Source: Rhizaria sp. SCN 62-66 (Eukaryota). From it: a stretch of DNA of 38,601 nucleotides. How positions within the stretch are numbered: position 1 is the first letter of the stretch; each line of letters opens with the position of its first letter. Position numbers and translations under genes: made by a program. Shown in pieces: positions 1,419-6,819 of this stretch. The notes under the pieces are model-generated. The model did no database searches, had not been told where the DNA came from, and saw nothing but the letters and a program-made list of their open reading frames with translations. The DNA is taken from the NCBI GenBank assembly GCA_001724265.1, contig MEDY01000333.1, positions 1 through 38,601 of the forward strand, written 5' to 3'.

Positions 1419-2730
1419 GGGCAGGGGCAGGAGCGGGGGCAGGGAGCTGGACAAGGCCCTTAGATGGGGCACCTTTAGCCTGGAAGCCCTTCGACGGGTT
1501 CGGCTGGGGGCGAGCTGGCTGAGAGATCACAGAGTGACGATGAGCTGCATACGCGTCGTCGTCATCATCATCCTCATCGTCATCCTCGTCGTCATCTTCG
1601 GCACTGTAGCTGCCACTCGCACTCTCACTCTCACTCTCACTCTCGCTACTATTGTCACTGTGAATGTTGTTGCTGCCGTTGTTCCGGCGGAGGTGGCTCT
1701 GAGGCGCCGCGCCGACCCGGTTCGCGGCCGCGGCAGCCTTGGTCGCGACGTTGCTCGCACTGCTCAGCCGCGCCCAGCGCTCGCTCTTGCTCATGTGCGC
1801 CTGGTGACCGCCGAAGTCTAAGGGGGCACTTAAACCGGAGCCGCTGCCAGCGGCGAGCGCGCCGAGCAGCGCCAGGGCGGGCACCGCCGTCAGGTCGACG
1901 TACGTGCCGGTGAGCGCGATCGCGGTAGCGTCCTCCGCCTCCTCCTCAGCGCGCACCTCGGCGCCGCTGCCGGCAGCGGACGCGGACTGCGCGAGGGTCT
2001 TGGCGAGCGTGGGGAAAGTCAGGCCGGGGGGCGCGGTGCGGCTTAACTTGAGCACGAGCGCGGACCCGGGCGGAATGAGGTGGAAGAGCTGCGCCGACGG
2101 CCGCAGCGGCGTCACGTGGCACAGCGGCAGGTCCACACTGCTGCTCGCAGTCGCCGCTGAGCTACCAGCGGCAACGGCCTTGTCCCCGGCAGCTTTGGCA
2201 GTGCTGGCCGGTGTAGTGGCGAGCAGCGACACGCCCCAGTGGTTGCTGAGCGCCGCATCGCTTGCGCTGGGCGACTGCAGCGCGAACCGGGGCGCGGCGG
2301 CGGCCGCGGCGGCCGCGGCCGCGGCGGCGGACGCGGCGGCCACCGACCGGTCCTGCCCCGGCTTTCCGCCCTTGCCATCCTTGCCAGACTTGCCAGCGGC
2401 GGACTTAGGATCGCGACCGTTGCTGCGGCGGTGCGCGGCGGCGGCGGCAAGCACGGCGGCCTCAGCAGCGGCGGCAGCGGCGGCGACGGCGGCGGCCGCG
2501 GCAGCCTCGGCCTTGGCCTTGGCCTTCTTGCCGCCCTTGGTCACGAAGAGAGGCCGGTGCGAGGTCGGGTCCGCGCGCTTCAGGTACACCAGCGAAGCGA
2601 AAGCGGCCGACGTTAGCAGGATGGCCGACGTCGGGGGCGCGCGTAGGGTTGTGGTCCTGCCCGTGGAGATGATGGCGCCGAAAGGGCCGGTCGCGGGCAC
2701 CGCGGGTGCGGGGCACAAGAGCGAGGCCAT
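691..2730 (-). CDS. Low-complexity Ala/Lys-rich protein with a probable nucleoplasmin-like (NPL, FKBP39/HD-tuin type) N-terminal domain and an acidic tract
   Basis: 679-aa ORF ending in TGA. Segments FGAIISTG, LLTSAAFA, LPLCHVTPLRPSAQL and IALTGTY follow the order expected for an NPL beta-sandwich, then an SESESE/DDDEDDD acidic tract and a basic tail. A short upstream exon is possible (CAG acceptor near 2738-2740). Family call is tentative. Confidence 0.5.
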
Positions 2731-3310
2731 ACTCGGACTGGACAGGGAGCGAGACGGAAAAAGAGTTCAGTTGAGCAAAATCGCAATAGATAGAAGTTTA
2801 AATATTATAATTGAATGTGTATGTCATATTGTTTGCAGTATTGTTGTCTGACTTGTGAATGACGATAAAAATAGCGCGCATTTGCTTAGCCGCAAACACC
2901 CTTCATTTCAGGACCGACCTACAACACCGTCTTTCCATTTGGTTTGGTGACCCATGAGCGAACAAATGAAATGCGACTTTTTATGCATGTAAAGCACTGT
3001 AAACTGCAACTGAGATCGCGAATCCGAAATATACTATCGACTATCGAGTGAAACATCTTACGAGCGCTTCTTTTATTTTAAAACTTATTTATTTACCACT
3101 TAGCGCAGCTATCGTTGTCGTCATCTCCAGTATCATATCATCATTTTGTTGTTGTTTTTGTTTTGTTTTCATAAATTGTATGCATAATGTCGATTGTAAC
3201 ATGTTATTCTTGTTAGTATTCCACGACATCGATCCGTAGTCAGTAGTAATGCGTACGGATACAAAAGTGACCTCATCCGCGTCCGGCGCCGACACTGCAC
3301 AGCGGTGCAC

Positions 3311-3829
3311 TTAGAGCTCCTTGAAAGCGGTGCGGATGGAGTTGTAGAGGGACTGGAAGTCGGCGTTGATGACCTCAGCGTCGAGGTGGGGCAGCTTGAA
3401 CTTCATGTTGTTCGTGAGGGCCGTAAACTGCCCCTTCATCTTCTTGCGCAGGTCCTCAGCCCGGCGCCGGGCTTTCTCCTGGACCGTGAACATGGAGTCA
3501 CGGCCGCGATGGAGGGCGGCGACGGCACGGGGCGTACTGTTGCGGCCAAGGACCATATCGGCAACGTTGACATCCTTGATAGCCTTGAGTGAGCCATCAA
3601 TCATGCGGACGGAGGTGCCCTTGGCAAAGCGGCCGACGTAGATAATGCACTGCGAGTTAGAGTGCTTCGACAGCGCCTGCGAGATGCACGTCTTGCCGCA
3701 GCCGAAGGCGCCGGGGATGGCGCAGGTGCCGCCGGAGGGGAAGAGCGAGTCGAGCACACGCTGGCCCATCAGGAACGGGTACTCGGAGGGGAGCTTCTCC
3801 GCCGCCGGACGGGGCTTGCGCACGGGCCA
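3311..3829 (-). pseudogene. VMA1: Truncated V-ATPase subunit A duplicate containing an intein N-terminal remnant
   Basis: [34 protein letters not shown] (Walker A)..IIYVG, then intein-like sequence, then a jump to the last ~47 codons (LRKKMK..FKEL-TAA). Lacks the 5' exons and most of the C-terminal half. Confidence 0.9.
3453..3631 (-). mobile_element. VMA1-type (VDE/PI-SceI-like) intein, N-terminal Hint fragment, degenerate (Cys1 to Arg)
   Basis: [53 protein letters not shown] follows IIYVG directly, the yeast VMA1 intein site. It aligns without gaps to the PI-SceI N-terminus as I recall it (CFAKGTNVLMADGS...PREVIKLPRGRETMYSV). Confidence 0.9.
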
Positions 3830-4469
3830 AGAGTGAAACATCTTACGAGCGCTTCTGTTATTTTAAAACTTGTTTATTTACCACTTGGCGCCATAACAAA
3901 GCGTACGAGCAGGTCAGTGAAGTTATAAAGACACTCCACGACGCTTGCCCTGCGCTCTGACACCGCGCCAATCGCAACCCAACTTACTAAAGAAAGCGAA
4001 AGAAAGAAAAGATAGAGAAAACGACTGACAGACGAGACGAACAAAGTCGAACCTTGCTTCAATGTCATCGTCACATTTACATAGCAGCAGCCAAGAAAGA
4101 AGAAAAGCAAGCGCAGGCAAACAACAAACAACACGTAGCATCTTGTGTAAAGAAAAATAAACAAAAGAAAATCCGTATCACGTGCTGTTGTTATTGATGC
4201 GCCGACACACACTCCGCTCCCACTCAGCCGCTGCAGAACTGTGTTTTGCAACCAAGACTTGAGCAAAGACTGCCTTTGTCCAACAGCTATCGTTGTCGTC
4301 ATCACCAGTATCATATCATCATTTTGTTTTTGTTTTTGTTTTGTTATCATATGTTGTTCTTGTTATTATTCCACATCGATCCGAAGTCAGTAGGAATGCA
4401 TACTGACACGAAACTGACCTCATCCGCGTCCAGCGCCGACACTGCACAGCGGTGCACTGAGCGGTGCAC

Positions 4470-6819
4470 TTAGAGCTCCTTGAAAGCGGTGCGGATAGAG
4501 TTGTAGAGGGACTGGAAGTCGGCGTTGATGACCTCGGCGTCGAGGTGGGGCAGCTTGAACTTCATGTCCGTGAGGGCCGTAAACTGCACCTTCATCTTCT
4601 TGCGCAGGCGGTCCCACGTGAGGCGCGGCTCGGCCTGGTCCTTGGTGAGCGCGACGTACGCCAGCTCGTAGAAGGTCGCCATGTTCTTGAGCATCCACGC
4701 CGTCTTGATCAACGGGCAGTTGTAGTCCCACTCGGAGAAGGCGTTCTGCATGAGGTAGTCTTCGCGGATAAGACGCGCCATATCGAGCTGGAGCTTCTGC
4801 TCCTCGCCGAGCGAGTCCTTGCCGACGAGCTGGACGATCTCCTGCAGCGCCTTCTCGCGACCCAGCACGGTCTTGAACACCTGCACGTTCTTGAGGTACT
4901 CGGGGTTGGTCTTGTTGTAGAAGGCCGCGAGACCGCGCTCGTACTTGGTGAAGGAGATGTTCCAGTTGACGGAAGGGAAGTGCTTCTTCTGCGCGAGCTT
5001 CTTGTCGAGGCCCCAGAAGACCTGGACGATGTCGAGCGTGGCAGTGGTGACGGGGTCGGAGAAATCACCGCCGGGGGGCGAGACGGCGCCAACGATGGTG
5101 ACGGAGCCCGTGAGTCCGTTGCCGATGCACTTGACGCGGCCGGCGCGCTCGTAGAAGTTGGCGAGACGCGAGGCGAGGTAGGCGGGGTAACCGGCATCAC
5201 CGGGCATCTCACCGAGACGGCCGGAGATTTCACGGAGGGCCTCGGCCCAGCGGGAAGTAGAGTCGGCCATCATGGCGACGTCGACACCCTGGTCGCGGAA
5301 GTACTCGGCAAGCGTGATGCCCGTGTAGATCGAGGCCTCACGGGCAGCGACGGGCATGTTGGAGGTGTTGGCGACGAGGCAGGTGCGCTCCATGATGGAC
5401 ACCTTCTCGCCGTCGACCTCAGTAAAGAGGGCCGGGAACTCCTCAAGCACTTCGGCCATTTCGTTTCCACGCTCGCCGCAGCCCACGTAGATAATGCACT
5501 GCGAGTTAGAGTGCTTCGACAGCGCCTGCGAGATGCACGTCTTGCCGCAGCCGAAGGCGCCGGGGATGGCGCAGGTGCCGCCGAGGGGAGCTTCTCCGCC
5601 GCCGGACGGGGCTTGCGCACGGGCCAGTAGTGGTACATGCGGAGCTCGACCGTCTTGCCCTTCTTGTTACGGAGGGTGCCGATGACGTCGTCGATCGTGT
5701 ACTGGCCCGCGCCGGCGAGCGAGATGAGCGTGCCGGCGACGTTCGGGGGCACGAGGATGCGGTGCTCCTTGAAGAGCGAGTTCTCGTGGACGACGCCGAG
5801 AATGGAGCCGCCGGTGACGATGTCGCCCGCGCCGAGCCCGGGGGTGGGCTTGAAGTCCCACAGCTTCTTGTGGTCGAGCGACTGCACCTGCACGCCACGG
5901 GGGATGAAGACCGACTTGGAGACCTCGGCAATGGTCGTCAGGGGACGCTGAATACCGTCGAAGATGGCGTTCATGATACCGGGGCCGAGCTCGACCTGGA
6001 GGGGCGCGCCCGTGCGCTCGACGGGGTCGCCGATGGTGAGGCCGGAGGTGTCCTCGTAAACCTGGATGAAGGCAGTGTCGTTGATGAGCTTAATGATCTC
6101 ACCGACGATCTTGAACTCACCGACACGGACGAGCTCGTACATACCAGCACCGGACATCTGGTCGGCAACGACGACTGTACGTGTGCGAGTGTGATATTGT
6201 GTGACATTATATCATCATGCATGAAGCCCGAGAGCGACGTGGGGTGGCGCAGAGCCAAGAGGCGAGGACAAAAAATGAGAGCCAGATGGAAAAGGGAAAG
6301 AGAATTATTACATGAGGTGGTGTGGGAAGAGATAAGAAATTGAATACTAGTGTGACATTGCTGTAGAAACGATGCGGGAGCGAGAAACTGGAGGGCAATG
6401 TTGGCCGCTCGAAGGCCTGTTGACTCGAAAGTGCGACGAGGCGATTAGGGATAAAAGAGGGGATTCAATGCGGAAGACGTACGGGGACCGGAGACACGCT
6501 GGACACGACCAGTGCCAAGGACCTGAGTCTCATGGGTAGCCGGCGACTGAGCCTCAACTGTGAGCGGAAATGGGGGGAAAAATGAACGTTTGGGGAAAAT
6601 GTGAGGAGGGGACGGGAGCCGTGATGAGGTCGGGGGCATGACAAACAATGCGATCATCTCACTGCACGCATCACGAGACTCGCATGGGAAGAAATGGCGC
6701 ATAGATATTCGCGTCGCAAGCAGCCACACAAAGCTGGGAACGCGTGCAGCTACGTTGAGGGGCAGAACAACGATGCATTGGGAAGCTGGCCGAGCGAGGA
6801 ACGTACCTTCAGTAGACAT
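4470..6819 (-). pseudogene. VMA1: V-type H+-ATPase catalytic subunit A, intein-free, with a frameshifting deletion near 5583 (exons 6819-6807, 6557-6483, 6174-4470)
   Basis: Spliced model reads [40 protein letters not shown]; in another frame [54 protein letters not shown]. The conserved [17 protein letters not shown] segment is missing and the frame shifts there. TAA stop. The lesion could be an assembly artefact. Confidence 0.85.

Follow-up and report, generated by a model that had tools for sequence, protein, structure and literature searches.

An intein in an essential gene has to be excised exactly if it is to be lost, so truncated remnants that no longer splice are expected almost never to be encountered; former occupancy of a site tends to leave no trace. 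The window analysed here, meaning the whole stretch of DNA of 38,601 nucleotides, raises the question of whether such a remnant has been preserved in it and, if so, how. The initial annotation had reported about 59 foreign codons directly after IIYVG, at the VMA1 intein insertion site, in a duplicated V-ATPase gene of an apparently non-yeast eukaryote. The reading reached in this analysis, which is given a probability of roughly 85%, is that these codons represent an inert fossil of a once-complete PI-SceI / Hom_end_hint homing intein in the gene for the catalytic subunit A of the V-ATPase.

The features used throughout belong to two gene copies, A and B, and to the sequences that flank them:

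3453..3631, minus strand: intein relic of 59 codons (RFAKGT...RRRAEDL), comprising the N-terminal Hint block A and the strands that follow it
3632..3829, minus strand: N-extein piece of copy A (WPVRKP...P-loop GAFGCGKT...CIIYVG), 98.2% / 92.9% identical to copy B
3311..3452, minus strand: C-extein tail of copy A (RKKMK...KEL and stop), fused in frame to the relic
3106..3310, minus strand: 3' UTR of copy A, homologous to copy B 4284-4472
3831..3891, minus strand: flank element of 61 nt that abuts copy A on its upstream side and marks the duplication junction
3046..3106, minus strand: the same 61-nt flank element again, on the downstream side of copy A
4470..6174, minus strand: exon 2 of copy B, with the empty VMA-a site GGC/TGC at 5479-5484 and the Pfam domains given below
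6175..6482, minus strand: intron of copy B, 308 nt, GT..AG; exon 1 ends at 6483 (...GRVQRVSGP)

A Hint-domain fragment at the VMA-a site

On the minus strand, a frame of 183 codons runs from 3862 to 3311 without a stop and encodes the N-extein piece, then the relic and finally the C-extein tail that ends in KEL and a stop codon. The outer parts of this frame are V-type ATPase subunit A, and the 59 relic codons between them are foreign to the V-ATPase. The relic begins exactly past IIYVG, which is the VMA-a intein site; in Beyer et al. (2022, PMC8966425), the name VMA-a is given to the IIYVG-type site and VMA-b to the P-loop site of archaeal inteins. A Hint-domain profile was one of the checks proposed along with the original claim, and the Pfam profile PF05203 (Hom_end_hint) matches the relic with an E-value of 1.5e-14 and 55 bits, above the curated cut-off of 32.1, pairing relic residues 2-58 with profile positions 2-58/66 of 228. 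At E<=1, a phmmer search of the relic against the PDB yields 10 distinct sequences. PI-SceI or yeast VMA1 entries account for six of them and align over residues 2-58 without gaps (E 1.1e-11 to 7.2e-11); the remaining matches are three Prp8 inteins (E 0.02-0.03) and one unrelated protein (E 0.04). The likeness to PI-SceI, at first put at 24 of 53 residues, is computed as 25 identical residues of 57 when the relic is compared with the S. cerevisiae-type VMA1 intein of metagenome locus L002.

The insertion point is also that of known inteins. In 51 full-length intein-bearing V-ATPase A proteins the intein follows the homologous YVG, as the relic does, and in the yeast loci L001-L003 it likewise lies between YVG and CGERGNEM. 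The in-frame insertion that defines this allele is retained by the relic at its N-junction, and the C-junction has been deleted. The profile match and the position shared with the 51 homologues thus uphold the claim of foreign codons at the VMA1 intein site, and from these comparisons the relic is identified as a genuine Hom_end_hint (PI-SceI-class) intein remnant at VMA-a.

The extent of the loss was assessed with a profile built on 52 complete inteins from V-ATPase A proteins, of which 51 are located at VMA-a and one in the P-loop. Applied to the window's 954 six-frame ORFs of at least 20 codons, the profile recovers the relic ORF alone, at positions 2-61 of 446 (E 4.3e-19); no second intein-like ORF is found among the 954, all other matches being no better than E 0.7. 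The intein beyond approximately residue 60 is gone, including block B (TxxH), the LAGLIDADG endonuclease, blocks F/G and the terminal Asn, which agrees with the deletion of the endonuclease and the C-terminal splicing blocks described at the outset. The relic ORF has no Pfam match to LAGLIDADG / Hom_end (PF05204 / PF14528) at E<=1, and the relic passes directly into RKKMK of the extein tail with no splicing end in between. Its first codon (3629-3631) is CGC, so that the earlier observation of Arg in place of Cys1 is confirmed; copy B has TGC there, its +1 Cys, and position 1 is Cys in all 52 of the compared V-ATPase A inteins. The Arg codon is separated from Cys by one transition, and with it the nucleophile has been lost. 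Because the nucleophile, block B and the C-terminal Asn are absent the relic is unable to splice, and because the endonuclease is absent it is unable to home; it is most likely functionless now.

The S. cerevisiae VMA1 intein (PI-SceI / VDE) has the same host protein, insertion point and Pfam family as the relic, which corresponds to about 13% of that element (59 of ~454 residues) with Cys1 changed to Arg. Unlike PI-SceI, the relic has no block B, LAGLIDADG domain or terminal Asn, and only the first residues of the DNA-recognition region remain. The relic further differs from the yeast intein in residing in a pseudogene, truncated, of a host outside the fungi and in its GC content at third codon positions (GC3) of 0.75. 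The initial annotation had described its codons as host-like, which holds only in part, since the flanking V-ATPase coding sequence has a GC3 of 0.90-0.93; elsewhere in the window, other ORFs have a GC3 of 0.60-0.89 and non-coding stretches an overall GC of 0.38-0.49. VMA inteins with a dead endonuclease, of which PhoVMA is an example (Beyer et al. 2022, PMC8966425), stand at one stage of the same cycle of invasion, endonuclease decay, deletion and loss as the relic. Inteins of the PhoVMA type retain the whole Hint fold and, the host gene being essential, continue to splice, whereas the relic has lost splicing and survives only by virtue of its place in a redundant copy.

A truncated duplicate beside a working gene

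Copy B, as represented in other assemblies, is intact, spliced and free of an intein. Four Pfam domains (ATP-synt_ab, ATP-synt_ab_Xtn, ATP-synt_ab_N and ATP-synt_VA_C) are all present in copy B / P0272, a protein that equals the window's copy B over 185+370 residues and contains 21 additional residues missing from the window. A spliced contig from X5, taken as a sign that copy B is transcribed, joins exon 1 to position 6174, skips the intron and also has the stretch missing from the window; the X5 library is on record as cDNA, whereas an automated guess classifies it as DNA. The N-terminus of a relative, P0002, agrees with exon 1 of copy B. In the window itself, copy B is without 58 nt at ~5586, which results in a frameshift, and copy A is without 6 nt behind 3732 (VL codons) that are present in X1, X3, X4, L004 and the gene call P0122. 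The 58-nt gap (about 5583-5589) and the 6-nt gap (3732/3733) end at the same homologous spot, ...FPSVL/GG, and both are probably an assembly error at the repeat common to the two copies.

Copy A retains 66 N-extein and 46 C-extein codons. More than 200 N-terminal residues are missing, and ~330 extein codons between CGERGNEM and LTWDRL are absent along with the rest of the intein. The full set of subunit A domains (N-terminal barrel, nucleotide-binding and C-terminal domains) is not found in copy A, whose window version scores 25.6 bits for ATP-synt_ab, below the cut-off of 29.5. Conserved V-ATPase residues are altered in the window, X1 and L004 (EYPFLMGQ vs EYPLLTGQ), and the tail carries a V-to-G change and an additional Asn codon. 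Copy A is a pseudogene, 5'-truncated and promoterless.

The two copies remain closely similar over all of the segments that they share. In the N-extein, positions 3629-3741 of copy A are 98.2% identical to 5478-5589 of copy B, the only two mismatches being located at the relic junction (GTC vs GTG and CGC vs TGC), and positions 3786-3845 are 92.9% identical to 5583-5642. The C-extein segments (3314-3455 vs 4473-4611) agree at 133 of 137 bases, or 97.1%, with a 3-nt insertion, and the 3' UTRs (3106-3313 vs 4284-4472) at 163 of 177 bases, or 92.1%, with several indels. The 61-nt flank elements at 3046-3106 and 3831-3891 are 95.2% identical by self-BLAST and pairwise alignment, and the duplication junction reads ...TTTCACTC joined to TTGGCCC.... 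These identities of the N-extein (98.2%), C-extein, UTR and flank point to a duplication that is fairly recent.

Such preservation could also be expected if copy A were a living gene, with its ORF of 178 residues, made up of a P-loop piece, a Hint N-fragment and the V-ATPase tail, expressed in a new role. In line with this proposal, the frame is open and has been called as gene P0122 (178 aa), which is recorded on 6 contigs, and the exteins are 97-98% and the UTR 92% identical to copy B. Against it, the N-terminal domains are absent and the nucleotide-binding fold is partial, as the low ATP-synt_ab score of the window version indicates, the catalytic Cys is gone, residues conserved in V-ATPases have been altered, and no upstream region of its own has been identified, the start being located in the duplicated 3' flank. 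A living copy A is therefore judged very improbable. The open 183-codon frame and the in-frame deletion count against a pure fossil and make a translated product conceivable; as evidence of translation the frame is weak because other frames here are open for 97-130 codons. As a sign of selection the open frame was rejected, out-of-frame ORFs of that same length being common nearby. Contigs drop rare variants, and hence the absence of an X5 contig over 3368-3601 has no bearing on expression of copy A.

Two further observations concern the divergence of the copies. At window positions 3746, 3768 and 3775, the copy A N-extein in X3 has the letters of copy B (EYPLLTGQ, not EYPFLMGQ), which suggests strain variation or gene conversion between the copies and could reflect ongoing conversion instead of free decay. 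Between the copy B 3' UTR and the 61-nt flank, an AT-richer stretch of 392 nt (3892-4283) has no counterpart downstream of copy A, so that this sequence was either inserted behind copy B or deleted behind copy A; the 52-intein profile finds no intein-like ORF within this stretch.

One of the conditions that could undo the original claim, according to the initial annotation, was a chimeric assembly in which the junction between extein and intein is unspanned. Contigs without errors cross both junctions. In X1 and X3, which derive from two studies, 287-nt contigs correspond to 3379-3665 with 0 differences and bridge both ends of the relic, extending 74 and 34 letters past the junctions. Metagenome contig L004 (1684 nt), retrieved with a degenerate junction pattern search, differs from window 2346-4023 by a single gap of 6 nt and shows 0 mismatches. 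Additional bridging contigs at 2900-3330, 3800-4489 (X1) and 3636-4489 (X4) link copy A with both its downstream flank and the end of copy B. One holder of the sequence may be the window's own source, in which case the holders are not all independent. Since both junctions are bridged in contigs of two studies and in L004, an assembly chimera is very unlikely. The idea that an assembler fused a contaminating fungal VMA1 fragment to protist sequence can draw on the two assembly-type defects (6 nt and 58 nt missing) that adjoin the A/B repeat. Its probability is close to nil given these contigs, the relic's flanks, which are the host's own sequence at 97-98% identity, and the best fungal intein, which is just 48-55% identical at the protein level.

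PI-SceI is a laboratory reagent. An origin of the relic from a laboratory construct was considered and rejected on the basis of its identity to the yeast element, which is only 25/57. Separately, one X3 contig matches relic codons 1-42 and then, at window position 3505, continues with at least 255 letters unlike the window; it is absent from X1 and may represent a further allele or copy, or come from a different organism that matches at 90% likeness.

The host and the relatives of the intein

The runs with this locus are labelled as bioreactor and wastewater metagenomes. Over the C-terminal 371 residues of copy B, relatives are found at 95, 85 and 83% identity, the best named relative is Guttulinopsis vulgaris (Rhizaria, Cercozoa) at 76%, and alveolates reach 64-66%; intein-bearing fungal V-ATPases are 53-61% identical to the host. 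A FastTree phylogeny, computed from 211 V-ATPase A sequences over 608 profile columns after removal of the inteins, amounts to a single-gene placement. It unites the window protein and Guttulinopsis in an 8-member clade (support 0.93) inside a wider group that includes other rhizarians, and fungi form a separate cluster in the same tree. The extein thus sides with the view that the host is no yeast, and its affinities place the host as an uncultured, cercozoan-related, non-fungal protist.

Table 1 of Green et al. (2018, PMC5784728) contains 42 VMA1 inteins, all of them fungal, with representatives in Pezizomycotina, Saccharomycotina, Taphrinomycotina and Pucciniomycotina. Prior documentation of VMA1 inteins in the host's own lineage, which would have removed the novelty, is thus not found in that table. 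No report of a VMA1 intein outside fungi, or of an intein remnant in a pseudogene, was found in the open-access literature taken without supplements.

The present distribution was surveyed by searching 7997 candidates for V-ATPase A proteins with a length of 1009 residues or more. This gave 1028 matches at E<=1e-20, and the best 120 of them were examined. An intein is present in 52 of the best 120; it is located at VMA-a in 51 proteins and in the P-loop in P0292. The carriers are mostly fungal, and many belong to Kickxellomycotina (Coemansia and relatives), but six of the 52 have exteins of non-fungal type: P0287, P0300, P0284, P0286, P0315 and P0392. P0287, from a transcriptome of Chrysoreinhardia (a pelagophyte stramenopile), is sister to an oomycete sequence (support 0.95), the extein of P0300 is sister to Closterium, a streptophyte alga (support 0.97), the exteins of P0284, P0286 and P0315 group with EukProt entry P0293 (support 0.986), and P0392 is left unplaced. 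The inteins of these six proteins occupy the same VMA-a site, belong to the 398-554-residue class and match Hom_end_hint, most of them Hom_end as well. In contrast to the relic they retain their full length, from Cys1 to the terminal [HR]N, and they are 38-53% identical to it over 49-56 residues. Of the two alternatives raised in the initial annotation, horizontal intein transfer or a wider host range, the latter is thereby supported within the best 120 of the 1028 matches. The statement that inteins at this site come mainly from Saccharomycotina is too narrow, considering the four fungal subphyla in the table of Green et al. (2018, PMC5784728), Kickxellomycotina and the non-fungal-type carriers found here.

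None of the six is from the host clade, and no intein-bearing V-ATPase of that clade is present in the best 120 of the 1028 proteins of at least 1009 residues. A full-length element elsewhere, which the initial annotation thought possible, is accordingly found neither there nor among the 954 ORFs of the window. None of the best 120 exceeds 63% extein identity to P0272, compared with 75-95% within the clade, from which it is concluded that the database contains no large host-clade carrier; a carrier could be hidden among proteins of less than 1009 residues, in split gene calls or beyond the 7997 candidates.

P0292 stands apart from the other carriers. It is a eukaryote-type V-ATPase A with a 458-residue intein inside the P-loop (GAFGCGK/C...HN/T), a site that corresponds to VMA-b, described for archaeal A-ATPases in Beyer et al. 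(2022, PMC8966425).

Which intein lineage the relic came from was approached by comparing it with V-ATPase inteins and with inteins of other proteins. Against V-ATPase inteins the relic is 33-55% identical and scores 37.7-58.2 bits, the best matches being of Geotrichum, Kazachstania and S. japonicus type. The highest identities, 50-58% over relic residues 1-50, are to metagenomic Hom_end_hint inteins that follow the P-loop GK motifs of other proteins (DnaB-like and ResIII helicases, Toprim etc.); these differ from the relic in host protein and in site. This branch, found in helicases, terminases etc., is probably virus-borne. It has to be considered that a member of it invaded VMA-a separately, without descent from the fungal VMA1 intein. 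The inteins most similar to the relic (57-58% over 49-50 residues) follow ...GK in other proteins, and the best 150 matches among 1.84 billion representatives include one V-ATPase extein besides P0227 of the window. NSTPR and DGSLK are common to the relic and the GK group, where fungal VMA1 inteins have DG.PR, and the non-fungal VMA-a inteins (the CFDP... group) are heterogeneous among themselves. The relic also scores 79.7 bits with a profile of 201 non-VMA segments versus 71.6 bits with one of 52 VMA-a N-termini, but the former set is biased, having been chosen by likeness to the relic. On the other side, alignments with VMA-a inteins continue to residues 57-59 of the relic through the motif M[YF].V..K..[HR]R, whereas those with other inteins end at 50-54, and a tree of the 60 residues sets the relic beside 49 of 53 VMA-a inteins, although with a support of 0.0. 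The longer alignments are a mild hint that the relic may be kin to VMA-a inteins, and a separate invasion is a tentative possibility that is not favoured.

Several searches for closer relatives gave no confirmed match. An exact 5-residue word search of the intein part against longer proteins gave 129 candidates, of which 0 were scored, and distant inteins may share no words. Searches with a 59-residue pattern gave 92 matches in viral contigs, 0 confirmed, and 597 matches in metagenome contigs, also 0 confirmed, the latter search being unreliable, as L004 was later found in those contigs.

History of the locus

The favoured reading of the relic as a fossil of a complete intein can be set out as a series of events. 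A whole intein would once have been inserted by homing, or inherited, in the V-ATPase gene of the lineage itself; its former presence there follows from the precise N-junction, since random capture would ignore the site. A tandem duplication of the stretch that begins at WPVRKP, includes the 3' UTR and extends to the 61-nt flank gave the 5'-truncated copy A. Inside copy A, one or more internal deletions took the remaining intein together with the ~330 extein codons and joined RRRAEDL to RKKMK with the frame kept. Where an essential gene is present only once, deleting its intein imprecisely is lethal, so a remnant of this kind could survive only in a dispensable duplicate. Copy B would have been emptied by conversion from an intein-free allele, or may never have been occupied; in the intein life cycle drawn by Beyer et al. 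(2022, PMC8966425), the final step is loss through crosses with strains that have no intein. Because the copies diverge little and the relic keeps residues conserved in the family, the sequence suggests that the intein was present in the lineage recently.

A different order of events would have the intein enter copy A alone, from a foreign or allelic donor and after the duplication, with copy B never occupied. The intact empty VMA-a site in copy B is compatible with this order, and the last 113 bases of the N-extein, which differ only at the junction (GTC/GTG and CGC/TGC), would allow for a short co-conversion tract. However, an active endonuclease would be expected to cut both identical targets, so that copy B would have to be spared by chance or to lose the intein later, a step that the fossil reading also needs. 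Entry into copy A alone is considered unlikely.

The locus provides direct evidence that a V-ATPase intein was formerly present in a rhizarian-type protist, a non-fungal lineage, and what is new here is a VMA-a intein, in the form of a fossil, in a new host lineage. The dispensable partial duplicate has kept the trace of occupancy beside an intein-free working gene. A broader proposal, that the VMA-a intein is no speciality of fungi but an old or widely travelling eukaryotic element still active in or near the cercozoan-related lineage, is speculative and rather doubtful at this stage; it draws on the good preservation of the relic in a young duplicate that diverges by 2-3% from the working copy. 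If this broader proposal is true, a complete, homing-competent intein was recently present in the V-ATPase gene of the species and may persist in its populations, in sister species or in their viruses, and one haplotype would record the full cycle of invasion, decay and loss. Together with the non-fungal VMA-a inteins, the locus offers material on the vertical versus horizontal spread of these elements across eukaryotic supergroups and on the gain-and-loss cycle of homing outside yeast.

A minor observation concerns the empty site of copy B. One X4 contig, from a relative with 90-95% similarity, leaves the window at 5477, which is 4 nt downstream of the empty VMA-a site, and its departure sequence ends in ...ttcatag, in the manner of a 3' splice site, a weak indication from a single contig. 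An intron at 5477, if real, would disrupt the endonuclease target.
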